In this document: positions 2,255 to 50,929 of the stretch, one piece after another
How the letters are laid out: each line of letters starts with the position of its first letter
How positions within the stretch are numbered: the stretch's first letter is position 1
Assembly: GCA_965368335.1 (NCBI GenBank)
Contig: CBDUMN010000005.1
Span: 105-64,104 of the forward strand
Length of the DNA: 64,000 nucleotides
DNA from: an uncultured Rhodospirillales bacterium
GTDB taxonomy: Bacteria; Pseudomonadota; Alphaproteobacteria; Rhodospirillales; JAPHRK01
Direction of reading: 5' to 3'
Program-made: the position numbers and the translations under genes
The notes under the pieces: generated by a model
What the model was told of the DNA's origin: nothing
Seen by the model: the letters and a program-made list of their open reading frames with translations, nothing else
Databases searched by the model: none

Positions 2255-3409
2255 TTAGTAATTTCCATTTGGCAATAAACTTTCCCACCCTTTCAAGAAT
2301 GTCCGCCCCATACGGCTTGAAACGCCGTTACGTTCGAACTCTTCGGATAGGGCGGTAATTTGGGCTTGCCTGGCTTCGTCTTCTTTGGTGAGGCTGAGTC
2401 GCCCATTTAGTTCGTCAAGCATCTCAATAACCAATCCATTGATTTCATCGGCGGTATTATCTCTGATGGGCCCGACATCGGAGTAGCGGTTGCGGTAAGG
2501 CGGTCGCATGGCTTCATCGAAGGAAATCGGCTTGTCGAGGCCGTCCAAGTGGAGCTTGGAGATATAGATGTCCCTTTTTGAGAAAGGCCGTTCGGAGAAA
2601 GGCGTGTTGTTGGCTTGGGCGACGGGAACGCCGAAAAGATCGGCGACGATCCAGGGGCCTGAGGTCGTGCCGAGGAAAAACCGGGCCGCAGCCATGAGGT
2701 AGATATCCAGCCAGTCGCTTCGGTCGTCGCTATGGGCGTAATCGATAACCTGAGGCATGGTCGGCAGAGGTGGCATTTGCGGGTGTCCTAGTCGGACAAT
2801 CCAGCCCCCGGCATTCGTAATGGTCTCTATCCCTTTGTAAAAGCTTTCAATCTCGGCGTTTCTGAAATCGTTAGCCGAATCGTCGATGGAAACATCATTT
2901 TCGAAAAAACGCTGATCTCTTACATGCAAGGCGACAAACCACGCATCACCCGGCAGACCGAGCTTTTTTAATGCTTTCTCACCCTTTTTCCGGTGCTCCT
3001 TTGTTAAGCTGAGAAGCGGCCCTCTTCCCTCATCTTCCCAAAGTTTGAAGAGGGCCACGGCGGCGCGGTCTTCATGGAGAATATTGCCGTCTGGAAAGCG
3101 GATATCCGATGCGTTGAAGGATGGCAGCTCCAAGGGATCTGCCTTTCGGGCGATTTCGATCCAGGGCTTGAAGTAACCAAGCAGGGTTTCGTTGGCGACC
3201 TCACCTTCGGGAGCCAGGACGACGCCTTTAAACGGTTCGGGGAACATACCCATTTCGGTCATCATGGCGAAAATACCCAACTGAAGGGCCGTTTCGCCAA
3301 TTCGTGTGACGAGAAAATTGGGTCGAAAGACGCGGTACTGAGTGGGAAGTTGCGGCAAGTCCTGCCCTTTGCTGTCTTGAATGGTTGTCAAGTTGCCTGG
3401 ATTTTTCAC
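2255..3409 (-). CDS. Hypothetical protein resembling the TIGR04372-type putative glycosyltransferase family
   Basis: Clean 384-codon ORF with a GTG start. The block ALHVRDQRFF...FRNAEIESFYKGIETITNAGGWIVRLG...VIDYAHSDDRSDWLDIYLMAAARFFLGTTSGP...FGVP matches my recollection of the TIGR04372 family pattern. This has not been verified by an HMM search. Confidence 0.5.
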   Translation of the reverse strand: MKNPGNLTTIQDSKGQDLPQLPTQYRVFRPNFLVTRIGETALQLGIFAMMTEMGMFPEPFKGVVLAPEGEVANETLLGYFKPWIEIARKADPLELPSFNASDIRFPDGNILHEDRAAVALFKLWEDEGRGPLLSLTKEHRKKGEKALKKLGLPGDAWFVALHVRDQRFFENDVSIDDSANDFRNAEIESFYKGIETITNAGGWIVRLGHPQMPPLPTMPQVIDYAHSDDRSDWLDIYLMAAARFFLGTTSGPWIVADLFGVPVAQANNTPFSERPFSKRDIYISKLHLDGLDKPISFDEAMRPPYRNRYSDVGPIRDNTADEINGLVIEMLDELNGRLSLTKEDEARQAQITALSEEFERNGVSSRMGRTFLKGWESLLPNGNY

Positions 3410-3482
3410 GGTTTTTATAGAAAAAACAACGCAGAAAGCTTAGTGTGTTAATGAATCGTTAATTTTGCGGGCTGGGTCTTCA

Positions 3483-4040
3483 ATGGCGCTGGTAAACCAA
3501 TCCGGGTCCTATCTCTCCTATCTTTCAAGCTCCTATCTGCTTGGGAGAGAGGAGCAATTGGATGGAAGCATTAACCAGACGCCTGCTGCCGATTCTCCTT
3601 TCGTGGTCCAAGATGTAATTACGATCTCCTCAGATGCTCAGAGCTTTCTGGAGGCCCAGGCAAAGGCGCAAGACCTGACTCCTGCGGCCGACCTTATCGC
3701 CGATCTGAAGTCGCATGGGAATTTGATATCAGCTTCTTTTGTCGGCAAAAACCTCCAAGGGATCGACCTGACCGGAGCTTTTCTCTACAAAGCTGATTTC
3801 AGTTCCGCCACGCTTGATTATTCCGTTTTGAAAGATGCTTGGCTTTCCGGTGCTGATTTTACCGGGGCAACGCTTATCGGCGCCGATTTGCGGGGCGCCA
3901 ATCTTAGCGGGGCGACAGGCTTGACCTCGGATGCCTTGCGTCATGCGCGTGTCGATACATCGACCTCGCTGCCCATTGGCGTTGTTTTGAAATCCACCGA
4001 GGACATCACCGAAGTCCGCCATCTGGACGTGGTCGCATAA
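3483..4040 (+). CDS. Pentapeptide-repeat protein
   Basis: The C-terminal half is consecutive A(D/N)LXX-type pentapeptides: NLQGIDLTGAFLYKADFSSATLDYSVLKDAWLSGADFTGATLIGADLRGANLSGATGL. The ATG at 3483 is preferred to the TTG at 3465. No signal peptide is seen. Confidence 0.8.
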   Translation: MALVNQSGSYLSYLSSSYLLGREEQLDGSINQTPAADSPFVVQDVITISSDAQSFLEAQAKAQDLTPAADLIADLKSHGNLISASFVGKNLQGIDLTGAFLYKADFSSATLDYSVLKDAWLSGADFTGATLIGADLRGANLSGATGLTSDALRHARVDTSTSLPIGVVLKSTEDITEVRHLDVVA

Positions 4041-4059
4041 ACATTCACCCAAAGCCTAT

Positions 4060-4752
4060 TTATTTAGGCTTATGCCGCCACCAATATTCTTCATTGATCG
4101 AGAATACGGGAGCGTAATGCCGGATTGTTCTGGCTTCGACGACCTGTTTGATCTGGTTATCTAAGATGTAGGGGGTGTCGTTCAGATAGACCGCAAGAAT
4201 GGCGTGGCCGACCTTGAGGTTCATATCCTTTACTGCGACAATCCTCAGATCTTTGTCGGTGAAACCCAACAGCTTTAGGGAAACAAATTTGGAGATTGAA
4301 TAGTCTTCGCAATCTCCGAATTTGGCCATGAATTCGCCCGGTGTCGCCCAGTAGTCTTTTTGCCCCCAATTGACCTGATCGGTGATGTATCGCGCCTTGT
4401 TCATAAAGGCGTTAACCTCTTTCACCTGGGTGAGTTTATCCTTGCCTTCCAAGCTTTTGAGAAAAGTCATCCATTTGTCGTAGTGGCATTTGTTGAACTT
4501 TTTTTCCTTGCAATCGCCCGCTTTGATGCTGGCCTGTTCCTTGGAATAACGTTCAATGGCTCCCGTCCATTTCTTGAAAGGCTTAAAATTGCGGGAGCGG
4601 ATTTCTTTGGTATTGAAAAGCCCGTCTGGGTTGACCTTTTTAGCCTCTGCCCAGTTCTGAGGATGGACTGTGAACAAAAGGGCCAGAACGCCCAATAAAA
4701 GAGCCGTTTTTGCAGTACGTATTCTTTTGTTTCTTTGGTTTGCCTGTTTCAT
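4060..4752 (-). CDS. Periplasmic transglutaminase-like cysteine protease (BTLCP / Peptidase_C93, LapG-like)
   Basis: The start at M57 of the track ORF gives a Sec signal peptide (MKQANQRNKRIRTAKTALLLGVLALLFTVHPQNWAEA). The Cys-His-Asp catalytic constellation sits in its typical context: DYWATPGEFMAKFGDCEDYSISKF ... KVGHAILAV ... YILDN. The acidic DCED context matches the Ca-binding site of LapG-type enzymes. Confidence 0.85.
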   Translation of the reverse strand: MKQANQRNKRIRTAKTALLLGVLALLFTVHPQNWAEAKKVNPDGLFNTKEIRSRNFKPFKKWTGAIERYSKEQASIKAGDCKEKKFNKCHYDKWMTFLKSLEGKDKLTQVKEVNAFMNKARYITDQVNWGQKDYWATPGEFMAKFGDCEDYSISKFVSLKLLGFTDKDLRIVAVKDMNLKVGHAILAVYLNDTPYILDNQIKQVVEARTIRHYAPVFSINEEYWWRHKPK

Positions 4753-4960
4753 CCGGCTGCATGTTCCATTGGATCGTTTGACCAATGATATTGAGCCGCC
4801 TTGATTACGACAAGTATGGAAATCACAGTTCAAGCCGATTTGAAGCAGCGTGAGTTCAGCATCTATGGGGAGAATCATGTCGACTGTATTTCTCCCTTTA
4901 AGTCTTATGGGTGATAACATACGATGCTCAATCTAAAGGACTTTTTCCGGGGAGGCTCCA

Positions 4961-7096
4961 ATGGTGAACGAGGAAAAACAACAACCTCAAGAACAAGAGC
5001 CCAAAATCAAACGGGCGGTCAACTTCAAGGTTGCCGGAACCGTTGTTGCATTAGTGGCTATTGTCGCCGCCGGGGTTTTCTATGCTTTTAGTTTTGTCGA
5101 GGAAGAACGGCAAAGAGATCTGCAGGATTGGCAGATCAGATTGGGGATTGTCGCCGATAGCCGGGTAGCTGCCGTTTCCGATTGGGTCGATAAAAACTTT
5201 GCTTCCCTCCGTGAACTGGCGGAAAACGCCTCCCTGCAGCTTTATATGACCGAAATTCTGTTTGCCGAGGAAGAGGGCGGAGAGGCTATGGCCGAAGCCC
5301 AGGCGCAGGCGGGTTATTTGCGCAATCTATTGGTGGCGACGGCTGATCGGACCGGTTTCAGCGCCCCGCCGCCGAGCGGTGAAATCGCGGCCAACGTGGA
5401 GCGTGTCGGCGTTGCCGGAATCGCCCTATTGAATAAGGATGGGAAGCTCCTCGTCGCTTCGCCCGGCACCCCGCCCCCCTCGCCGGATATTAGGGCGGCT
5501 GTGGCGAAAGCTCTCGGCGGGAAACCGGTCTTGATCGATCTCTACAAAGGAGCGAGCGACGAAACGACCGTTGGTTTCGCCCTGCCCGTCTATGCCTTGC
5601 AAGGTGATGAAACGGAAGGCATTGGCGTCGTTTTGGGGATTAAGCTGATCGGTAAGGATTTCGTCAAAACTCTTGAGCAACCGGGAGAGATTCAAAAAAC
5701 CGCAGAGACCTATCTCGCCCGGAAAAATAATGGCGTGATTGAATATCTGACGCCTTTAGCCGATGGGACGCCGCCGCTTGAGAGAACGTTTGCCGCCGAT
5801 ACTCCCGATTTGGCTGCCGCTTTTGCCGTTGAAAAACCGGGCGGCTTTGGTATTCGCCGAGATTATACCGGAACGGAAGTTCTGGTGACTTCGCGCCCCA
5901 TTGCAGGAACCCCCTGGGTATTGGCGCGGAAAGTAGCGACATCCGAGGCTCTGGCTGAAACCGATACCCGCCTGCGGACGATTCTCGTGGTCTTCCTGCT
6001 GATTATCGGTGGGGTCAGTGTCACGATGGTTGCCGTTTGGCGTCATGGAACGTCGCTTCGCGCCGCCAAGGCCGCCGAACAATTTAAGCTGCAAATGGAG
6101 CGCTTTCAGAACCTTTCGAAGTTCCTCAATGTGGTCACAAACAGCCATCCCGCACATATTTTAGCGGTAACGGGGGAAGGCAATATCACTTTCGCCAATA
6201 AGCGGGCCGCCGACAGTGTGGATATGGAAGTCGACGACATGCTGGGCAAAAACATGTTCAATGTGATCGGCCCGATCCAAGCCAAGGCCTATCACGAAAT
6301 TAACAAAGAAGTGATTGAGAAGTTTGAGCCGCACAACGCCGTGCATCGGTTTGAAGAGGCGGATGGCGATTTGGTGATTAAATCCGATCATGTACCCTTG
6401 CGGGGCGACCGCGATTATCCTCCCTCCTCTCTGATGATTTTAGACGATATCACCGAATTGACCCGAGAGCGGGAGCGTCGGGAGCGGGTGATGCGACAGC
6501 TTGTTGAAACGCTGGTCAGCGTGGTTGACCGGCGCGACCCCTACTCCGCCAACCATTCGGCGCGTGTGGCTGAAGTTTCCCACGCTATTGGTCAGGAGAT
6601 GGGATTGGGCGAGTTGGAACAGCGGACGGTCGATATCGCCGGTAGCGTGATGAATCTCGGTAAGATCTTCATTCCGCCCGAATTGCTGACGAAAACCGGC
6701 AAGCTAACCGATGACGAGCGTGAGCAACTCAGCCGCAGTTTCGTCGTCAGCGCCGATCTGTTGAGCGGTGTTGAGTTTGACGGACCCGTGGTTGATACCG
6801 TGCGCCAGATTGGCGAGAGTTGGGATGGTGCGGGACCGCTTGGCATGAAGGGCGACGAAATTCTCGTCACCGCCCGAATTGTCGCTGTTGCCAACGTCTT
6901 TGTCGGTATGGTCAGCCCCCGAGCTTATCGCGACGCCATGACCTTCGAAAAGGTCGCGGCGATTCTTATGGAGGAAGCGGAAAAGAAGTTCGACCGCAAG
7001 GCCGTTGTCGCTCTGATCAACTATATCGAAAACCGGGGTGGCCGTCAGAAATGGGCCCATTATCGGGAAACGCCGCTCGATCAAGGAACGAGCTGA
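4961..7096 (+). CDS. Membrane receptor: TM, ~290-aa periplasmic Cache-like domain, TM, PAS, catalytically degenerate HD-GYP domain
   Basis: GGAGG lies 6 nt before the ATG. TM helices are at about aa 24-46 and 341-360. A PAS-like segment spans about aa 383-500. The HD-GYP fold signature is retained (DPYSANHSARV..., ..LGKIFIPPELLTKTGKLT.., ..WDGAGPLGMKGDEI..ARIVAVANVF) but the catalytic residues are substituted: HD->NL (aa 565-566), HHE->IGE (617-619), GYP->GPL (624-626), AD->AN (645). Confidence 0.85.
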   Translation: MVNEEKQQPQEQEPKIKRAVNFKVAGTVVALVAIVAAGVFYAFSFVEEERQRDLQDWQIRLGIVADSRVAAVSDWVDKNFASLRELAENASLQLYMTEILFAEEEGGEAMAEAQAQAGYLRNLLVATADRTGFSAPPPSGEIAANVERVGVAGIALLNKDGKLLVASPGTPPPSPDIRAAVAKALGGKPVLIDLYKGASDETTVGFALPVYALQGDETEGIGVVLGIKLIGKDFVKTLEQPGEIQKTAETYLARKNNGVIEYLTPLADGTPPLERTFAADTPDLAAAFAVEKPGGFGIRRDYTGTEVLVTSRPIAGTPWVLARKVATSEALAETDTRLRTILVVFLLIIGGVSVTMVAVWRHGTSLRAAKAAEQFKLQMERFQNLSKFLNVVTNSHPAHILAVTGEGNITFANKRAADSVDMEVDDMLGKNMFNVIGPIQAKAYHEINKEVIEKFEPHNAVHRFEEADGDLVIKSDHVPLRGDRDYPPSSLMILDDITELTRERERRERVMRQLVETLVSVVDRRDPYSANHSARVAEVSHAIGQEMGLGELEQRTVDIAGSVMNLGKIFIPPELLTKTGKLTDDEREQLSRSFVVSADLLSGVEFDGPVVDTVRQIGESWDGAGPLGMKGDEILVTARIVAVANVFVGMVSPRAYRDAMTFEKVAAILMEEAEKKFDRKAVVALINYIENRGGRQKWAHYRETPLDQGTS

Positions 7097-7118
7097 CCCG
7101 AAACGGAAAGCTGGCCAA

Positions 7119-7152
7119 AATGAAACGGGAGCCGAAAAGCTCCCGTTTCATT
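7119..7152. terminator. Bidirectional hairpin terminator between the convergent receptor and adhesin genes
   Basis: Perfect 14-bp stem aatgaaacgggagc / gctcccgtttcatt with the 6-nt loop cgaaaa. On the minus strand it is followed by a short U-rich tail (cauuuugg). It lies in the 75-bp gap between the two stop codons. Confidence 0.6.
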
Positions 7153-7171
7153 GTATCTATGGGCGAACCCT

Positions 7172-10100
7172 TTAGGTGGTTTCGTCCAGATTGAAGGTGA
7201 TGCTGGTATCGCCGTCGCTGTCGGCCACCTGATAACCGTCGCCATCGGCAGCGGTAAAGGTAAAGCTGTCGTTCTGGATATCCTGATCAGGACCGTCGAA
7301 GGTAACCGAGAACTTGACGTCATCGAAGTCGTTGTCGTTCTGGTGGTAGTAGTCGTTTTCAGCCCGATTGGCATCCAGATCCTCAAACCCGATGTGCAGT
7401 TCACCATCATCACCGATGCCGGATTTGACGTGAACCATGCCGTCGTCGTTGGTCGATGCATCGCCGGAATGGAAGTTGTCTCGTGAATCGACGGTAAGCG
7501 ACGGTTTGCCGGGAGCGACAATTCTCAAGTCGCCGCTGGAGTCGAACTCAAGATAGCGCTGGTCGTTATTCAGCAGAGACTCGAGGTTATCGTAATCCCC
7601 TCCGTCGTCGTAGGAATTTCTACTCACCTTGTCATCGGCGTTCTGAATGATGAAGAAACCGATTTCTTCGCCCGGGCTCAGGTTGTTGAAGGTTACTGAG
7701 CTGCCATCGACCACGAGATCGCCGCCGCTGCCCACTTGCGAGGCATTGTGCCAGATGATGTCCGGGTCACTGTAAGTTTGCTCGCCGGTTTGTGGATCGG
7801 TGGTGATCTTGTACCAACCAACAGCATTCTTATAGCCCGCCTCTTCACCCTGGAAGGTCACGGTCATGGAGTCCGCGCCGTCAGGAACCTTGAGGTTGTT
7901 GGAGTCGACGCCAATGGTCGCATTGTCCCAACTGGGTGTTGAGTTTTCCCATTGGAAGCTGAAGTCGTTGCTCGTTTGCTGATACTGGATAGTTCCGCTG
8001 TTGATATCTGCTTGAGTGAAGGTGTCGTTTACATCAAGCGGAATTTGCGCTCCGTTGGCATCGACCCTGTAGAGTGCGCCGAAGTCAGGAGCATCGGTTA
8101 GCGTAAAGGTAATGTCGTTTGCGCCGGATTCGGCGTCGGTGACAGTGATTTCACTGGCATCCAGTGTCATGGCCTGACCATCGGTGAAGTAGCCTTGCAG
8201 GTCGGTGGTCAATTGAGGCGTATCGTTGACGTTGGTGAAGTTGACCTGGGCAGCGACCGGGTCGCTGTAGGTCTGCCCATCGTCGCTGGCGGAAACGCTA
8301 AAGCTCGGTGCATCTTCGCCGCCGTCATGGGTGAAGCTCACCTTGCCCGCGGCCACGTCGGCCAGGGTGAAGGAAGAAGCTTCCACACCGTCCAGGGTGA
8401 ATGAGCCGTTGGCCACATTGCTTACCTGGATGGTGACCCCTGCATCTGCAGTATCCACGTCGGAGACGCCAAGGTCTGCGACGCCGACCCCCACGGTTGC
8501 GCCTTCCGAAACTACGAGGCTCGGAGCCGAGACCGTTGCTGCATCGTTGATCGCAGCCACATCGACCTTAACGGTAGCCGTTGTTGAACTGCCCTGCTTG
8601 TCGCTGATGGTGACGGTAAATTCGTCCTCGCCGGTGTAATCGTCAGTCGGCGTATAGGTGAAGGCGCCATCGGCCCCGAATGTCACCTCGCCATGCGCCG
8701 GGCCATCGGTTTCGCTGGCGAAGCTGTAGGTCAGTTCATCGCCGGTATCGCCGTCGGAGGCTTCGAGGATCGCGCTGAAGGTATCGTCCTCGCTCATGCC
8801 GACAAGATTGTCTTCATCGATTGTTCCATTGACGACCAGACCGTCGAAAACCGGCCCGTCGTTGGAGCCCTCGACTGTTACCGTCGCCGTGGCGGTATTG
8901 GTCTTGTAGCCGTCGCTCACTTCATAAGTGATGGTGACGGTTGCATTATCGCCTTCCGCCAGGCTGTCGAAATCAGTGCCCGGATCGAAAGTAATCGTGC
9001 CATCGCCATTAACCGAGACCTTGCCGCCGCCATCGACCGAAGCGTTGGAAACGCTCAGGGTGTCGCCGTCAGCGTCAGTATCATTTTCAAGTACATTGAT
9101 GGTGAGCGTTTCGTTCTCTCCACCAAACAATCCCGTATCAGCAACCGCATCCGGCGCTTCATTAACATCGGTCACAACCGGGTTCGGATCGCCTTCGTAA
9201 GATTCGTCATAGTTCCGGCTACCCGGTGTCGAGCTGACTTCGTCCCAATTGCCATAGACCGGATCAAGAACTGTGCCGTCTTCCGTGGTTTCCACCGTGA
9301 CGGTACGCTGATAGCCCGTGGTCAGGGTGGGCTGGACGAAGGTTTCGGTCACGATCGTATCGTAAGTGGTGATCGTATCGCCGGTTTCCAGATCGATGCT
9401 TTCAACGCCAGAGTTTTCGACATTATTGGTGACGCGGCTTGCCAGCGCGGGATCGCCAATGTCTTGGGTAACGGAATTTGTTTCGTAGGAGGTTACGAAA
9501 GTTGAATCCGCATTGTCGTTCGGCATGGTGACCGAAACTGTTCCGGTGCTTTCCTTAAAGTGGTCGGAAACGGTGTAGGTCAAGTCGAACGAACCATTCC
9601 AATTATCGTTAGGCGTAAAGGTCCACTCGCCTTCACCGGTTTTCTCTAATGTACCGTTGAGGTTTTCGCCGCTGACATTGGTGACGGACAGAGTGTCGCC
9701 GTCCGCATCCGTTGCGCTCTTCAACAGTTGCTCTTCGGTGATGACCAGGGCCGTATCTTCCGCCCCCGTCAGTTCGGCAAGACCCGCATCCGGCGCTTCA
9801 TTAACGTTGACTTCAACGTGATCAGGACCGGCTTCGGTCTTGTTTTCACTGTCTACGTCATTATCGACTGTCGTGTTGGCCCAATCGCCGTATTCCGTGT
9901 CGGTTTCGCCGCCAATGTATTCAGTGGTCGTCACGGTCCGTTCGGAAAGCACCATGTCGTATGGTGTTTCGTAGGTATTAACGACCGTGGTGTCATAGGT
10001 CGTGGTGACATCGCCGGTTTCCTGATCGGTTACCGATTCACCGCTTTCGCGATTGATGGTCGGTTCGCTGGTGTTGACCAAGCTGGTTTCGCCAGACACC

Positions 10101-13075
10101 TTGTTCGGCCCGTCGGACTCGGTGCTTTGGGTAACCTTGGCGAATGTCTCGCCATTCCACTCGAAGGAGCCGTTATCGAAGGTCAGGGTTTCAATATTGG
10201 AAACCATATCCGTACCATCGATGCCGACAACCGAGAAGGAGCCGTCTTCATTGGGGATCAGGTTGTAATCGGCTGAATTGCCGCTAAAGATGGCCGTGTC
10301 GGCACCTTCGCCGCCATCGAGAATGTCATCGCCTTCACCGCCGTCGAGAATATCATCTCCGGTTCCGGCATAAAGTGCGTTAACCTGGGCATCGCCAGTA
10401 ATATCGTCGTTACCGGGCGAGCCAACCACGTTTTCGATGTTGGTCAGCACATCGTCGCCGATGTAGTACGTATCGGTTGCGTCGGTTGCCGTGCCTTCTT
10501 CAAGGTTGACGTTGACGCCGTTCTCAGCACTTTCGAATTTGATCGTGTCGATTCCGTCACCGCCATCATAGGTGTCGTTGCCGCCGCCATGAGCCGCAAC
10601 GATGGTGTCGTTGCCTTCTCCGCCTTGGACGATGTCGTTGCCGTCGCTGGCTGTAATCGTGTCGTCGCCCGCACCGCCATCAATGGTGTCGTTGTCATCA
10701 CCACCGACAATCACGTCGTCGCCGTCGCTGCCGACAATCACGTCGTCGCCTGCGCCGCCATCGATATTATCGGCTCCATCCCCGCCGGTCAGGATGTCGT
10801 TACCGTCGGTGCCGGTGATCTGGTCGTCACCTTCGCCGCCGTCGATGGTGTCGTCTCCATCCCCGCCGCTCAAGGTATCGTCGCCAGTCGTGCCCTGAAT
10901 TTGGTCGTTGCCGCCGCCGCCATCGATCTGGTCATCGCCCGCGCCGCCGTCAATGACATCATCATCATCGCCACCAACGACTTCAATGCTTGTTGCTGCA
11001 AACTCACCAGTCGCAACGTCATAGGTCCCATCGGCAAATTCGATGGTTTCAATGCCGATCAGGGTATCGGTTCCGTCTCGGTCAGCAACAGAGTCGGCCA
11101 CCTGAAGGTTGTCGTCGACTTCCGAAATGGCATAGTCGGCATAGTTGCCGGAGAAGACCGCCGTATCCATACCGCCTTCACCGCCGTCGAGGGTGTCGTT
11201 GCCACCACGTCCTTCAAGGATATCGTCGCCATCCACGCCATCGGCACGATTGACGTCACTGCCGCCGCTTAAGACGTTGTCGCCGTCATCGCCGCGAATT
11301 TCGTCATTGCCGTCGCCGCCGATAACATTTTCGATTTCGCTCAAAGTGTCGCTGTTGATGTAGGGATCGACGCCTTCGGCGTCAGTCGCCGTGCCTTCTT
11401 CAAGGTCAACCAGCACACCTTGCGTGGAACTATCGAAATCAATGGTGTCGATGCCGTCGCCGCCGTCGTAGGTATCGTTTCCGCCGCCGTGGGCAGCATC
11501 GATACTGTCGTTGCCTGCGCCCGCATCCACGATGTCATCGCCGTCGCCTGAGGAAATAGAGTCGTCGCCCGAACCCGTCGTAATGTTATCGTTCCCGGAC
11601 CCGGTCGTCACTTGGTTGTCGCCATCGCCAGCGTTGATGGTGTTGTTGCCGTTTCCGGCGTTGATAATGTCATTGCCCGAACCGGTGGTGATGTTGTCAT
11701 CGCCAGAGCCGGTCGTGATATCGAGGTTGTTCGTATTATCCGATTCGTCCATGTTGATGGGCACGTCAGAATTCGGATCGGAGAAGCTGGTTACGCCCTC
11801 TCCTAAGCCAACATGCCGTACGCCGTCGTCACCGATATAGTCGAAAGAGCCTTCTGGGGTATTGCTACCCGTACCGGTTTCAGGACCGCCGTTTAATGGA
11901 TCTGCACCCTCATCAGCACCAATGGTCGTCGGTTGATTGCCAACACCGAGTCCATTGGTGGGGTTGCTGTCCGCACCGCCGTCAAAGCCTTCGATTTGAT
12001 TCGTGTCGGTATCGTTGATTGCGACAGTGCTGGAATTGGTTGTTTGCGAGGTGTCGGGAGTTTCATCAGAACCCGGAATGAGTTCTTCATTGCCGCCTGC
12101 CGCCGTGGCGAAATCATCAAAATTCCCGACGTTCTGCATGCCGTAATCGTTGCCGGTACCGACTTCAGTAGGCAGATATTCAAAAGTCGTGCCGTAGATA
12201 TTGATCAGTTGATCTTCGGAAACTTCAAAAATTTCAACTGGAGGCAGATCGAAACCTTTTACGATGGTGCCGAAACCGGCCATGTTGATGATTTTGGTGC
12301 CGCCTTCGTTCCAGACGACGATTTCACCAACGAAGCCGTCGGATTCTTCCATCAGAACCACTTGCAAGTCTTCACCGTTGGCAAAGTCGACCCCGACCTG
12401 GGTGCCGCGAATACCGATGGTCGCCACCGGGGTTTCGATGGTCATGGCGTCCGGGTCGGTCTTGGCGACCTGGCCGGAAACGAAGGTGAACACGCCCTTT
12501 ACAACCGAGAAATTCATGCTGCCCGCGTCGGTGCCCGGGTCGTAGACCATTTCATCAAGGACCATGGAGCCGTTTTCGGCCATGGAGAAGGTCGTCTGGT
12601 CAGCCAAAATAATCCCGACCGCACCTTCGGGACCGGTTTCAAGAGCGTCGCCCTGATAAACCGGATCGCCAACATCGAGTTGGACCTTGGTGCCGTCGTT
12701 TCGGATAACGTAGACATCACCATCCATCTGATCGACGTGGCCGATAGGTTCGCCCGCTTGAGGGCCGCCCGCTTGAGCGTATTCGCCCGGGTTCATCGGC
12801 CCAGCCAGCTTGGTAACCAACTCACCGGTAAGGCGGCCACCGGTTTCGGTCATCAATGTGGCTTGAGGCTCTGAGGCGAAATAGTCCTCAACGACGGTTG
12901 TCGAGCCGTCGTTTTGCGTAATGACAAGATCTTGCCCGTCCCGCTCAAAAGCGTCGCTACCAACGGTTACCCCCGCAGGAAGCTGAACTGTGTTGTCGGG
13001 AGAGATTTGAACGACCGATGCGTCTGAGGTGTCAGTTACGTCGGTGCCTTCTGTGTTGTCATTATCCAGGGCCAT
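7172..13075 (-). CDS. Giant (~1,967 aa) repeat adhesin: N-terminal retention/FecR-like region, TAAG motif, RTX Ca-binding repeats, cadherin-like/VCBS-type domains, C-terminal DUF4114-like domain
   Basis: Single open frame. GGAGG lies 5 nt upstream of the ATG at 13073-13075 (M7 of the track ORF). Many GGxGxD nonapeptides are present (GSGDDNITTGSGNDIINAGNGNNTINAGDGDN...). Repeated V(N/D)EAPDA...DADGDTLSV...GT..F.P modules are present. The C-terminal block is GFFIIQNAD...DDGMVHV...HIGFEDL...NDNDFDDVKFSV. Confidence 0.9.
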   Translation of the reverse strand: MALDNDNTEGTDVTDTSDASVVQISPDNTVQLPAGVTVGSDAFERDGQDLVITQNDGSTTVVEDYFASEPQATLMTETGGRLTGELVTKLAGPMNPGEYAQAGGPQAGEPIGHVDQMDGDVYVIRNDGTKVQLDVGDPVYQGDALETGPEGAVGIILADQTTFSMAENGSMVLDEMVYDPGTDAGSMNFSVVKGVFTFVSGQVAKTDPDAMTIETPVATIGIRGTQVGVDFANGEDLQVVLMEESDGFVGEIVVWNEGGTKIINMAGFGTIVKGFDLPPVEIFEVSEDQLINIYGTTFEYLPTEVGTGNDYGMQNVGNFDDFATAAGGNEELIPGSDETPDTSQTTNSSTVAINDTDTNQIEGFDGGADSNPTNGLGVGNQPTTIGADEGADPLNGGPETGTGSNTPEGSFDYIGDDGVRHVGLGEGVTSFSDPNSDVPINMDESDNTNNLDITTGSGDDNITTGSGNDIINAGNGNNTINAGDGDNQVTTGSGNDNITTGSGDDSISSGDGDDIVDAGAGNDSIDAAHGGGNDTYDGGDGIDTIDFDSSTQGVLVDLEEGTATDAEGVDPYINSDTLSEIENVIGGDGNDEIRGDDGDNVLSGGSDVNRADGVDGDDILEGRGGNDTLDGGEGGMDTAVFSGNYADYAISEVDDNLQVADSVADRDGTDTLIGIETIEFADGTYDVATGEFAATSIEVVGGDDDDVIDGGAGDDQIDGGGGNDQIQGTTGDDTLSGGDGDDTIDGGEGDDQITGTDGNDILTGGDGADNIDGGAGDDVIVGSDGDDVIVGGDDNDTIDGGAGDDTITASDGNDIVQGGEGNDTIVAAHGGGNDTYDGGDGIDTIKFESAENGVNVNLEEGTATDATDTYYIGDDVLTNIENVVGSPGNDDITGDAQVNALYAGTGDDILDGGEGDDILDGGEGADTAIFSGNSADYNLIPNEDGSFSVVGIDGTDMVSNIETLTFDNGSFEWNGETFAKVTQSTESDGPNKVSGETSLVNTSEPTINRESGESVTDQETGDVTTTYDTTVVNTYETPYDMVLSERTVTTTEYIGGETDTEYGDWANTTVDNDVDSENKTEAGPDHVEVNVNEAPDAGLAELTGAEDTALVITEEQLLKSATDADGDTLSVTNVSGENLNGTLEKTGEGEWTFTPNDNWNGSFDLTYTVSDHFKESTGTVSVTMPNDNADSTFVTSYETNSVTQDIGDPALASRVTNNVENSGVESIDLETGDTITTYDTIVTETFVQPTLTTGYQRTVTVETTEDGTVLDPVYGNWDEVSSTPGSRNYDESYEGDPNPVVTDVNEAPDAVADTGLFGGENETLTINVLENDTDADGDTLSVSNASVDGGGKVSVNGDGTITFDPGTDFDSLAEGDNATVTITYEVSDGYKTNTATATVTVEGSNDGPVFDGLVVNGTIDEDNLVGMSEDDTFSAILEASDGDTGDELTYSFASETDGPAHGEVTFGADGAFTYTPTDDYTGEDEFTVTISDKQGSSTTATVKVDVAAINDAATVSAPSLVVSEGATVGVGVADLGVSDVDTADAGVTIQVSNVANGSFTLDGVEASSFTLADVAAGKVSFTHDGGEDAPSFSVSASDDGQTYSDPVAAQVNFTNVNDTPQLTTDLQGYFTDGQAMTLDASEITVTDAESGANDITFTLTDAPDFGALYRVDANGAQIPLDVNDTFTQADINSGTIQYQQTSNDFSFQWENSTPSWDNATIGVDSNNLKVPDGADSMTVTFQGEEAGYKNAVGWYKITTDPQTGEQTYSDPDIIWHNASQVGSGGDLVVDGSSVTFNNLSPGEEIGFFIIQNADDKVSRNSYDDGGDYDNLESLLNNDQRYLEFDSSGDLRIVAPGKPSLTVDSRDNFHSGDASTNDDGMVHVKSGIGDDGELHIGFEDLDANRAENDYYHQNDNDFDDVKFSVTFDGPDQDIQNDSFTFTAADGDGYQVADSDGDTSITFNLDETT
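10289..11728 (-). repeat. Coding region for RTX (hemolysin-type Ca-binding) nonapeptide repeats, organised as two ~300-aa duplicated super-modules
   Basis: ORF residues about 456-935. The blocks AAHGGGNDTYDGGDGIDTI(D/K)F...LEEGTATDA...IENV.G..GND...DTA.FSGN.ADY occur twice, exactly 300 codons apart (nt 11129-11497 and 10244-10597). Confidence 0.85.
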
Positions 13076-13451: not shown

Positions 13452-14120
13452 TTGACTGGTATTACAATAGATTTGGTATTCGATACCGTTTGTCCGTGGT
13501 GCTATATCGGAAAACGCCGACTTGATGAGGCGTTGGAAATGCGTCCGGATATAAATGTCGCCCTGCGTTGGCGGCCCTTCTTGCTCAACCCCAATATGCC
13601 GAAAGAAGGCATATCTCATGAAACCTATATGACACGTCGATTCGGCGGTCCCAGGAGAGCGCAGAAGGCCTATAACGCTGTCGAAGATGTCGGATTGTCG
13701 GCAGAAATCGATTTTTCTTTCGACAATATCAGCCGCACACCCAGCTCGATTGATTCTCACCGTCTGGTTCTCTACGCCGAAGAGCAAGGAATGGCGCAGT
13801 CCGCCGTGGAGGCCCTTTTTTACAATTACTTCGTCAATGGGAAGGATATTGGCGACCTTGCAGTGCTTGTTTCCATCGCTGAAAAACTTGGGCTTGATTC
13901 TGCCGATGTGGAGACTTTTTTAAGCAGTGATGAGGGCCTGGATGCCGTTCATGAAAGCAGCCAGCACGCTCATTCTCAAGGGATCAACGGGGTTCCGGCT
14001 TTTATCTTCAACGAAAAACTCGTGCTCTCGGGCGGCTATCCCTCAGGCATTCTGGCCCGGATGATCGATACGGCTCACCAGGATGAAATGCTTGGCCGGG
14101 AAATGGCCGCTACGCATTAA
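13452..14120 (+). CDS. DsbA-family thiol oxidoreductase (FrnE / 2-hydroxychromene-2-carboxylate isomerase-like)
   Basis: The N-terminus ITIDLVFDTVCPWCYIGKRRLDEAL carries the CPWC active site, and the C-terminal GINGVPAFIF motif is present. A TTG start is the only in-frame option. Confidence 0.8.
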   Translation: MTGITIDLVFDTVCPWCYIGKRRLDEALEMRPDINVALRWRPFLLNPNMPKEGISHETYMTRRFGGPRRAQKAYNAVEDVGLSAEIDFSFDNISRTPSSIDSHRLVLYAEEQGMAQSAVEALFYNYFVNGKDIGDLAVLVSIAEKLGLDSADVETFLSSDEGLDAVHESSQHAHSQGINGVPAFIFNEKLVLSGGYPSGILARMIDTAHQDEMLGREMAATH

Positions 14121-49639: not shown

Positions 49640-50929
49640 TCAGCGTTTCTTGTAAAATTCCCGGCAGGCGGCAGCGATTTCCGCTTCGTCTTCACGGCCC
49701 AGGAGTTCTCCATTGAGGTATAACCGTTTGTTGTTCAGGTTGAACCGTACTTTACCGACCTTAAAGGACCCGCTCGGTGTTTTAGCCGCTTTTTTATAGG
49801 TTGAAATAAGGTCGCTATTGGCTGTCGTGGCTTCGCTGGCGGCTTCTTCCGTCTCACTGGCGCTAGATGAGAGAGTTGATGCTGCAGACCGAAGGTCGCT
49901 AACCGTTGCCTCTTCTGCATAGCCAATGCCTTCGGCAGCAGAAACCGCTTCTTCGGCGGCTGTTTGAGCTGCCGCTCCGTCGCTATTGGCAACGGCTGTT
50001 TCTGCCGATGAGACAGCGGTCGTTACGGTCTCAACGGCCGTATTGGCTTCTTCCAAACTGTCGTAAGCGGTTTCCATGGCCGTTTTGAGGGCATCGTTAC
50101 TTTTATCGGCCTGATAAGCATCAACCGCAGCATCATAAGCCTCCCGAGCATCTTGCTGAAGGGACTCCGCCCCGCTTAAGGCTTCCTGTGCTGAATAGAG
50201 AGAGGCCTGAGCCGAGGCTTTCGAAGCCGACGATGCAGCGCTTGTCGCTTGGGAAGCTTTAGTATCCCCATCAATGGCTTCATCAGATGCCTCGGCGGAA
50301 GAATTTGCGGCGCTCGAACTTGATGAAACCTGGGTATAGACAGACTGAGCCTCGGATAGATCGGTTTCGGCGGTTTCAAGCGTCGCGATGGCGTCGTTCA
50401 AAGTATCTTTCAATGCATCTTTTGTCGCTGGCGTTCTATTTTCATAGGCCTCCAGGGCCGTTTCATAGTCTCCAAGCGCGGTATCGTAGGTTGATTGGGC
50501 GTTGTCATAGACTGCCTGGGCGGCCTCGGCTGTCGTTTCGGCTTCGCTTGCAGCAGAAAGAGCGGAACTGGCCGCCGCAACTGCTTTTGCCGACGCGGTT
50601 GCCGCCGCTTGGGCGGCTTTGGCTTTTTCCTCAGGTGCGCCCATATAGCGCCCTGCATCGATGGAAATATCGAAGGTGATTTCATCGGGCAGCTTGAAAT
50701 TCATCCCGCCTTGCAGATCTGCCGGAGCGACTTTTTTTCCGCGCACATCAACGCCTGGTCTGTATTCGACATCCGCCCGGGCTTGATGATTAACCAGCCG
50801 ATTGCAGATGCGTTTGGAGACCTTGATCTTTTGTTTGACCGGTTCGGTTGCCTGCTCTCCTCCTTCTTCAGCAAATGAATTTGGAGATAGGCCAAGCAAA
50901 ACCAGTGAAATCGGTAGCAGCCATTTCAT
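49640..50929 (-). CDS. Secreted hypothetical protein: small conserved-looking N- and C-terminal segments split by a ~280-aa Ala/Ser/Thr/Glu-rich low-complexity region
   Basis: Signal peptide MKWLLPISLVLLGLSPNSFA. N-terminal segment ...VEYRPGVDVRGKKVAPADLQGG.... Long helical-looking A/S/T/E region with recurring A.AYD.A...Y..AL motifs. C-terminal segment FKVGKVRFNLNNKRLYLNGELLG. Confidence 0.7.
   Translation of the reverse strand: MKWLLPISLVLLGLSPNSFAEEGGEQATEPVKQKIKVSKRICNRLVNHQARADVEYRPGVDVRGKKVAPADLQGGMNFKLPDEITFDISIDAGRYMGAPEEKAKAAQAAATASAKAVAAASSALSAASEAETTAEAAQAVYDNAQSTYDTALGDYETALEAYENRTPATKDALKDTLNDAIATLETAETDLSEAQSVYTQVSSSSSAANSSAEASDEAIDGDTKASQATSAASSASKASAQASLYSAQEALSGAESLQQDAREAYDAAVDAYQADKSNDALKTAMETAYDSLEEANTAVETVTTAVSSAETAVANSDGAAAQTAAEEAVSAAEGIGYAEEATVSDLRSAASTLSSSASETEEAASEATTANSDLISTYKKAAKTPSGSFKVGKVRFNLNNKRLYLNGELLGREDEAEIAAACREFYKKR

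Follow-up and report, generated by a model that had tools for sequence, protein, structure and literature searches.

Two systems are known in which an inner-membrane receptor with a degenerate cyclic di-GMP (c-di-GMP)-metabolizing domain gates a periplasmic cysteine protease of the BTLCP family and, with it, the release of a surface adhesin. In the first, LapD/LapG/LapA of Pseudomonas fluorescens, with orthologs in Vibrio, Bordetella, Legionella and Shewanella, the protease cuts an adhesin exported by a type I secretion system (T1SS) at a [T/A/P]AAG site lying past the retention module. The second, DvhD/DvhG/DvhA (also named BfsD/BfsG/BfsA), comes from Desulfovibrio (Nitratidesulfovibrio) vulgaris Hildenborough and has been described in a PNAS paper of 2024 and a Nat Commun paper of 2026 from the O'Toole and Sondermann laboratories (PMC10990149; PMC13090378; PDB 9rc0, 9rbz, 9rc2). 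Here, we report on a three-gene locus at positions 4060-13075 of a 64-kb stretch of DNA (hereafter the window) from an uncultured Rhodospirillales bacterium, which codes for a BTLCP protease, a membrane receptor and an RTX/cadherin-like adhesin. This locus is probably an alphaproteobacterial ortholog of DvhD/DvhG/DvhA, that is, a c-di-GMP-gated proteolytic switch for adhesin release. The assignment draws on direct observations, namely the domain identities of the three products, the loss of the metal ligands and the retention of key nucleotide contacts in the receptor, the linkage of the genes and the conservation of the cleavage motif.

The cytoplasmic fragment of DvhD binds c-di-GMP with a Kd of 322 nM, and in a P. 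fluorescens reconstitution DvhD renders DvhG-dependent adhesin release c-di-GMP-responsive (PMC10990149). Across the two papers, the Kd for c-di-GMP lies at ~0.1-0.3 uM and the nucleotide is not hydrolyzed (PMC10990149; PMC13090378). Crystal structures cover the periplasmic dCache domain, the PAS/HD-GYP region and the HD-GYP domain with bound c-di-GMP; the HD and HH motifs are replaced by SQ and MN, respectively, nucleotide binding splays the stalk helices, and an inside-out model has been proposed (PMC13090378). The 2024 paper described systems of this kind as confined in the main to deltaproteobacteria (PMC10990149). The later paper selected 78 DvhD homologs at a coverage of at least 85% and E below 1e-50, and its supplement includes pairs from the marine alphaproteobacteria Sneathiella, Kiloniella, Pelagibius, Fodinicurvata, Oceanibacterium and Denitrobaculum; in Pelagibius marinus, the consecutive accessions WP_193370322 (DvhG-like), WP_193370323 (DvhD-like) and WP_193370324 ("FecR domain-containing protein") make up the same trio as that of the window. 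These alphaproteobacterial pairs are tabulated and not analyzed, the main text being devoted to Desulfovibrionales (PMC13090378). The design in which a dead HD-GYP protein stands in for LapD is, therefore, already known as the Dvh system, and its alphaproteobacterial occurrence is already on record (PMC13090378). An initial annotation of this DNA had proposed a Lap-like release module with a dead HD-GYP protein in the LapD role and was aware of no description of such a variant: the proposal itself is supported by the homology to DvhD, whereas the supposed novelty falls to the papers of 2024 and 2026 and their crystal structures (PMC10990149, PMC13090378). The same annotation suggested that the design was independently evolved, which stands for DvhD in relation to LapD but not for the window locus in relation to DvhD. 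The novelty is limited to this uncultured member and to the account of the features that distinguish its clade.

The receptor gene (4961..7096, plus strand) specifies a DvhD-family inner-membrane protein of 711 aa that displays the same order of parts as DvhD: transmembrane segment (TM1), dCache, TM2, PAS, stalk and an HD-GYP domain with a dead metal site. Two hydrophobic stretches, spanning roughly residues 24-46 and 338-361 (nt 5030-5098 and 5975-6043, plus strand), bound a periplasmic region of 294 residues (45-338; 5093..5974) assigned as dCache by the Pfam dCache_1 model, by an AlphaFold2 (AF2) model and by Foldseek. The dCache_1 match (E 5e-11, 42.9 bits) falls slightly under the Pfam cut-off of 45 bits. 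The cytoplasmic part comprises a PAS domain at residues 395-501 (6143..6463; PAS_4 E 8.8e-6, TIGR00229 8e-9) and a degenerate HD-GYP domain at residues 517-680 (6509..7000; HD_5 E 1.5e-30), which is predicted to bind c-di-GMP without catalysis. No match to HAMP, GGDEF, EAL or LapD_MoxY_N was obtained in the receptor with the Pfam and NCBIfam models. The earlier description of a two-TM protein with a Cache-PAS-dead HD-GYP rather than a HAMP-GGDEF-EAL architecture is thus borne out by the Pfam matches and the lost HD and HH motifs. The receptor is unrelated to LapD, and an identification as LapD was rejected, none of the defining LapD domains being present; the resemblance to LapD would lie in the working alone.

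Every domain of the receptor has DvhD as its best match in the PDB. By sequence, the top matches are the DvhD chains 9rc0 (E 5.7e-38, residues 410-694) and 9rbz, after which the active HD-GYP enzymes follow at ~1e-19 to 1e-22; a profile built from 15 sequences recovers 9rc0 with E 5.8e-55, and the PAS domain of the receptor aligns with that of the same chain. When a DvhD PAS/HD-GYP query was rebuilt from the PDB alignment, the matches in the protein database were short fragments, none longer than 490 aa or above 59% identity, and did not include DvhD of D. vulgaris. We used a DvhD-like fragment that is 56% identical to DvhD (P0123) as a stand-in for a full-length comparison: receptor residues 288-694 are collinear with it at 26% identity (E 6e-41), the alignment spanning the last periplasmic strands, TM2, PAS, stalk and HD-GYP. 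The DvhD dCache chain was missed by both single-sequence and profile searches of the PDB and emerged from the fold comparison alone; the authors of the DvhD work likewise note that sequence comparison does not reveal the dCache similarity. For residues 45-338, the AF2 model (pLDDT 90.6, pTM 0.86) has as its top Foldseek match 9rc2, "DvhD, periplasmic domain" (E 7.9e-13, TM 0.67/0.78), about four orders of magnitude ahead of the other dCache domains, those of chemoreceptors, which score 1e-8 or weaker. The receptor is a DvhD homolog in all three domains. Within the receptor, RELAENASLQLYMTE hardly varies among members of the clade and maps, in the modeled dCache, to the interruption between helices one and two, a placement that would be consistent with a docking surface.

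The HD-GYP domain of the receptor has lost both metal motifs: the HD is replaced by MN (in the context SVMNLGK) and the HH by IG, where DvhD has SQ and MN, and the GYP motif is reduced to G-P by deletion of the tyrosine. The MN is found in place of HD in ~110 of 120 close homologs. Lacking the HD and HH motifs that bind the metal, the protein is not expected to have phosphodiesterase activity. The likeness to the catalytic HD-GYPs PmGH (4mcw), V-cGAP3 (5z7c) and PA4781 (4r8z), at E 1e-18 to 1e-9, is that of the shared HD_5 fold family; those enzymes have the metal-binding HD/HH that the window receptor lacks.

To compare the nucleotide pockets, we mapped the DvhD contacts onto the window receptor and the same 120 close homologs, and most of the c-di-GMP contacts proved to be conserved. 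Five of them are kept in at least 90% of the homologs: L577 (L582 in the window), K582 (R587, conserved as Arg), M646 (M650), R650 (R654) and Y652 (Y656). R525 of the window is retained as a contact in place of Lys. Y523 corresponds to Y528 in the window, with Phe in 88/120 homologs, and the bridging P567 corresponds to P572, with Pro in 92/120. Other positions have diverged: the tyrosine of the GYP motif (Y621) is deleted in the window and in 119 of the 120 homologs, the bridging R569 is replaced by Glu (E574; Glu or Asp in the homologs), and E668, although kept in the window as E672, lies at a position occupied by E, D or Q among the homologs. In DvhD, mutations at R650, Y652/R653 and P567 impair the c-di-GMP response most, as seen in the stabilization of the protein by c-di-GMP, and these mutationally critical positions are all kept in the window receptor. 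Therefore, c-di-GMP binding is likely in this clade, the window receptor included, to judge from the pocket residues. The changes in the pocket, namely the missing GYP tyrosine, the Glu at R569 and the variable E668, imply that affinity or ligand preference could differ in this clade.

The linkage of the three genes is conserved well beyond the window. The protein database holds 870 receptor homologs, the best 120 of which are full-length at 55-95% identity, and the named top homologs are mostly Rhodospirillales, Magnetovibrionaceae or "Alphaproteobacteria" metagenome-assembled genomes (MAGs). A scan of a genome collection with the receptor confirmed 202 loci, the best 80 of which were used to assess linkage; nearly all of these 80 are labeled alphaproteobacterial MAGs, and the closest relative among them has a receptor 66% identical to that of the window. 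Of the 70 loci that extend far enough upstream, 65 have a BTLCP gene immediately upstream of the receptor gene and divergent from it, the median gap being 222 bp. The conservation of this adjacency in relatives, set beforehand as a test of the proposal, is thereby established. Downstream, within 3 kb of the receptor gene, a convergent open reading frame (ORF) of at least 600 aa is present in 44 of 52 loci, and many of these ORFs are longer than 3,000 aa and continue past the end of the locus. The Pfam-labeled order of C93, dCache/HD_5 and FecR plus RTX recurs in loci L081-L084 and L086, and the trio keeps its order, between differing flanks, at 95% (L081-83) as well as at 60% identity (L084).

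In 14 of 86 related loci, genes for T1SS components, one or two ABC transporters plus an AprE-type membrane fusion protein, occur no more than 10 kb from the trio (L086, L059, L061, L062, L064-L066, L068-L070, L073, L074, L076 and L079), which means that T1SS genes are linked to the trio in some lineages only; in L086 (1021-7200), two ABC transporters and an AprE-type membrane fusion protein are encoded a few kb from it. Five of the 70 loci (L029, L037, L038, L041 and L071) have no upstream BTLCP gene and may represent rearranged or degenerate versions of the module; L071 still has a FecR-type adhesin downstream. In L085 (12287-22277), a CapK-like gene of the AMP-binding family separates the receptor from the giant ORF, which measures at least 4,296 aa, extends beyond the end of the retrieved sequence and is recorded without a Pfam match.

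The gene for the presumed protease substrate lies convergent to that for the receptor (7172..13075, minus strand; 1,967 aa). Pfam recognizes nine stretches of HemolysinCabind, Cadherin_3/4/5, Big_9 and FecR in its product, along with a weak BapA_N, and NCBIfam RTX models match as well. As in DvhA, an N-terminal retention domain is followed by hydrophobic residues and then TAAG. The retention ("plug") domain, at about residues 19-80 (12836..13021), was identified in an AF2 model of residues 1-345 (pLDDT 88.6), in which it superposes on the "cell surface anchoring domain" 5ix9, the template behind the LapA retention-module model (TM target 0.79, rmsd 0.9 A, 32% identity, E 1.1e-3). BapA_N matches here with E 4.9e-5, below its cut-off, and a phmmer search of the first 110 residues against the PDB gave chance matches only; hence, it is the fold match together with the weak BapA_N match that points to a retention domain. 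Downstream of it, a FecR-like beta domain occupies about residues 110-272 (12260..12748; Pfam FecR E 3.7e-9), with the anti-sigma periplasmic domains 4m0n and 6ovk (PupR-like) as its Foldseek matches at ~3e-5 to 7e-5. The plug is thus predicted to consist of two domains, the second of which precedes the cleavage site. A helix follows at residues 287-299 of the model, and the TAAG falls inside a low-confidence segment.

In the translation, the predicted scissile TAAG occupies residues 324-327 counted from the Met at 13075 (12095..12106, minus strand), in the context NFDDFATAAGG, and is the sole [T/A/P]AAG in 1,973 residues. The "DP" turn found ahead of the site in the Lap system is lacking, the context being DDFA-TAAG. 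The adhesins encoded beside homologous receptors are conserved over their first ~320 residues (39-54% identity), and the similarity collapses directly after a shared [L/F]-x-[D/E]-F-x-T-A-A-G; this motif is found at the same place in the adhesins of eight other loci. Among the database homologs of sufficient length, 32 of 59 have [T/A/P]AAG at that place, mostly in the same context, with the consensus (D/E)-L-x-(D/E)-F-(E/D)-TAAG. The targeting helix of DvhA carries the conserved hydrophobic residues F95 and F99 ahead of its TAAG, and the shared motif resembles this arrangement. The expectation of an RTX/cadherin adhesin with a retention-like N-terminus and a TAAG is accordingly substantiated by the 5ix9 fold match and the site at 12095-12106.

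The remainder of the adhesin consists of RTX repeats (HemolysinCabind, NCBIfam RTX) at about residues 455-1000 counted from 13093 (10094..11731, approximate), cadherin-like and bacterial Ig repeats (Cadherin_5, Cadherin_4, Big_9, Cadherin_3; 7994..9805, approximate) and a non-RTX C-terminal domain of about 330 residues (7172-8170), all on the minus strand. In other loci, the giant ORFs that lie downstream of homologous receptors end in this same C-terminal domain. A DUF4114 domain at the C-terminus, which the initial annotation had entertained, was rejected, its match being weak (E 0.017). The protein also contains an internal duplication, at about residues 530-570 and 880-920 (within 9900-11700, minus strand), whose near-identical blocks read "AAHGGGNDTYDGGDGIDTI.F.S...GV.V.LEEGTATDA" and are each followed by RTX repeats.

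The protease gene (4060..4752, minus strand) specifies a DvhG/LapG-like protein of 230 aa with a predicted N-terminal signal peptide and a match to Pfam Peptidase_C93 (PF06035; E 2.6e-19). Its nearest solved structures are the LapGs of Legionella (4fgo, 4.7e-20) and P. fluorescens (4u65, ~1e-20), with whose catalytic and calcium motifs its GDCED (Ca/Cys), GHAIL (His) and ILDN (Asp) align, as the initial annotation of an exported BTLCP with intact Cys, His and Asp had it. The D-C-E motif is shared with DvhG, in which the calcium and catalytic residues are D316-C317-E318 (PMC13090378). The NCBIfam LapG equivalog model (NF045674) scores the protein at 97.7 bits against a cut-off of 320. DvhG is itself only 33% identical to LapG (PMC13090378), and the low score of the window protein would be consistent with a DvhG-like lineage rather than with gammaproteobacterial LapG. 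The N-terminus, MKQANQRNKRIRTAKTALLLGVLALLFTVHPQNWAEA followed by KK, is signal-peptide-like, with a basic n-region, a hydrophobic core and a processing site after AEA and before KK, and reads as a Sec export signal. As predicted, then, the protease would be a soluble periplasmic enzyme, as is LapG; DvhG, in contrast, has a TM anchor and a ~180-residue linker. Signal peptides are reported for most DvhG orthologs (PMC13090378). The protease genes on homologous contigs code for 222-232 aa, and these lengths support a start at 4752 over the longer ORF to 4920. A 449-aa metagenomic protein (P0300) contains both FecR (PF04773) and Peptidase_C93 (PF06035); it could be an adhesin-type N-terminal module fused to a protease, or a gene-calling artifact.

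By homology to the D. vulgaris system, the following mechanism can be proposed for the window locus, in which receptor binding of c-di-GMP, its interaction with the protease, cleavage at TAAG and T1SS export of the adhesin are all carried over from the characterized homolog. The adhesin would be retained in its outer-membrane channel by the folded periplasmic N-terminal plug made up of the retention and FecR-like domains. The exported BTLCP would cut F-x-T-A-A-G between A325 and A326, just past the plug, whereupon the adhesin would slip off the cell. The catalytically dead HD-GYP dimer of the receptor would sense cytoplasmic c-di-GMP, and nucleotide binding would rearrange the stalk, the PAS domain and the TM helices and so be passed on to the dCache domain in the periplasm. 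When c-di-GMP is high, this domain would hold or inhibit the protease, with the adhesin remaining plugged and the cell attached; at low c-di-GMP, the protease would be free and the adhesin shed.

Several points weigh against this interpretation. The protease and receptor genes are divergent and do not form one operon. T1SS genes were not found in the 64-kb window, about a dozen ORFs of which, each below 300 aa, lie outside the Pfam scan. The cleavage site is placed ~325 residues into the adhesin, behind two domains, as against ~100 in DvhA and LapA, and the RTX repeats are N-proximal rather than beside the C-terminus. The latter is atypical of T1SS substrates, in which RTX repeats usually directly precede the C-terminal signal. 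In the receptor, the GYP tyrosine, which in DvhD is a phosphate contact (Y621), is missing from the window and nearly all its relatives, the bridging-site R569 has become Glu and the base-specifying E668 position varies across the clade. The c-di-GMP biochemistry is known from D. vulgaris DvhD alone, and its extension to this clade would be by homology. Even in D. vulgaris, the restraint of DvhG by DvhD, via the membrane-distal alpha1' region, rests on an AlphaFold3 model (PMC13090378).

The departures from D. vulgaris are features of the clade and not peculiarities of the window: apart from those in the HD-GYP pocket, they comprise the presumably soluble protease, the divergent instead of co-oriented protease and receptor genes, the absence of adjacent T1SS genes in the window, the additional FecR-like domain in the retention module with the TAAG at ~residue 325 and the RTX repeats in the N-proximal half of the adhesin. 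The host, an uncultured Rhodospirillales-like alphaproteobacterium, is different as well. This raises the question of whether the Rhodospirillales-type clade, which takes in no fewer than 202 genome loci and 870 protein clusters, forms a mechanistically distinct DvhDG sub-type. Its marks are the MN/IG motifs together with the lost GYP tyrosine, the FecR-like domain before the cleavage site and the divergent protease and receptor genes. These could reflect another ligand preference (3'3'-cGAMP or no nucleotide), a signal sensed by the dCache or a FecR-domain-dependent docking of the protease. We view such a sub-type as rather improbable.

An alternative, which we consider unlikely, is that the same hardware responds to another input: the HD-GYP pocket would bind 3'3'-cGAMP or pGpG, or nothing at all, or the dCache would sense a periplasmic small molecule, and the protease would be gated mainly from outside or by the coincidence of two signals. 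The near-universal deletion of the GYP tyrosine and the E/D/Q variation at the E668 equivalent speak for this, as does the binding of 3'3'-cGAMP by DvhD, which is only ~5-fold weaker than that of c-di-GMP (PMC13090378); yet the residues most critical to the c-di-GMP response of DvhD are conserved. On the periplasmic side, the fold is a true dCache whose nearest neighbors other than DvhD are ligand-binding chemoreceptor domains, and, in terms of invariant columns, the periplasmic domain is as conserved as the cytoplasmic part; but a protease-docking surface explains this high conservation equally well. The authors of the DvhD work left a dCache ligand possible, although the DvhD dCache structure shows no ligand density (PMC13090378).

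It is very unlikely that the protease is controlled by a canonical LapD whose gene lies in another part of the genome, with the adjoining HD-GYP protein having an unrelated signaling role. The visible sequence is, to be sure, only 64 kb of that genome. However, the persistence of the divergent pairing in 65 of 70 loci, across proteins that are just 50-66% identical, is hard to explain without functional coupling; the protease falls far under the LapG equivalog cut-off; and the homologous protease of D. vulgaris, which has no lapD, displays in an AF2 model an occluded pocket for the LapD Trp. Finally, a coincidental adjacency of unrelated protease, sensor and surface protein genes can practically be dismissed: the alternating strands preclude a single operon and the flanking genes are unrelated housekeeping genes, but the conservation statistics already contradict it, the trio is kept while its surroundings change (L084-L086 compared with the window), the adhesin carries the consensus motif of the protease at a conserved position and a homologous system has been reconstituted experimentally (PMC10990149).

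With regard to the layout of the locus, the ORF map and translations place all three ORFs where the initial annotation had them. The protease and receptor genes are divergent, not co-oriented, across a gap of 208 bp (4753..4960), presumed to be their shared promoter region. A promoter and terminator scan of 4000-7300 found no more sites than in shuffled sequence, and the one sigma-70-like match in the gap (minus strand, 4813-4785) is not above chance. The other genes of the window are housekeeping genes, namely mfd, recG, lexA, comEC, gltX, gltA, lpxB/D, bamA, rseP, dxr, cdsA, tsf, dnaE, lolCDE, proS-like, RNase J, coaX and nuoLMN, and the neighborhood is of an alphaproteobacterial type. As previously remarked, no GGDEF or EAL gene was detected: the 33 window ORFs scanned with Pfam, beyond which lie about a dozen more of under 300 aa, gave no such match, and no GG[DE]EF motif occurs in any frame of the 64 kb. 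Nothing can be read from this absence, since the genes for c-di-GMP enzymes normally lie in other places. A gene for a DsbA-like thioredoxin (13452-14120, plus strand) is situated between mfd and the start of the adhesin gene. The DsbA-Mfd pair stays next to the adhesin in L081-L084, including where the flank on the other side is different, and this may reflect either backbone synteny or a functional link. Two sizeable ORFs, one of 384 aa and one of 429 aa, lack Pfam matches (coordinates, with those of a pentapeptide-repeat protein included: 2255-3409 (minus), 3465-4040 (plus) and 49640-50929 (minus)); the 384-aa ORF and the pentapeptide-repeat protein adjoin the protease gene, and this pair is kept in the 95%-identical L081-83 but not in the farther loci.

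The locus opens no new category, and a different input or docking mechanism in the clade, if true, would merit moderate attention. Its wider meaning is that sulfate reducers are not alone in having the DvhDG solution, in which a dead HD-GYP c-di-GMP receptor gates a LapG-like protease: among Rhodospirillales-like alphaproteobacteria of marine and groundwater origin, which are for the most part uncultured, this gene arrangement is frequent and strongly conserved. It also furnishes a functional annotation for hundreds of metagenomic proteins labeled "PAS domain S-box", "HD-GYP" or "FecR domain-containing", and the variants of the clade, with its Tyr-less GYP, FecR-extended retention module and presumably soluble protease, offer points of comparison for understanding how DvhD restrains DvhG.

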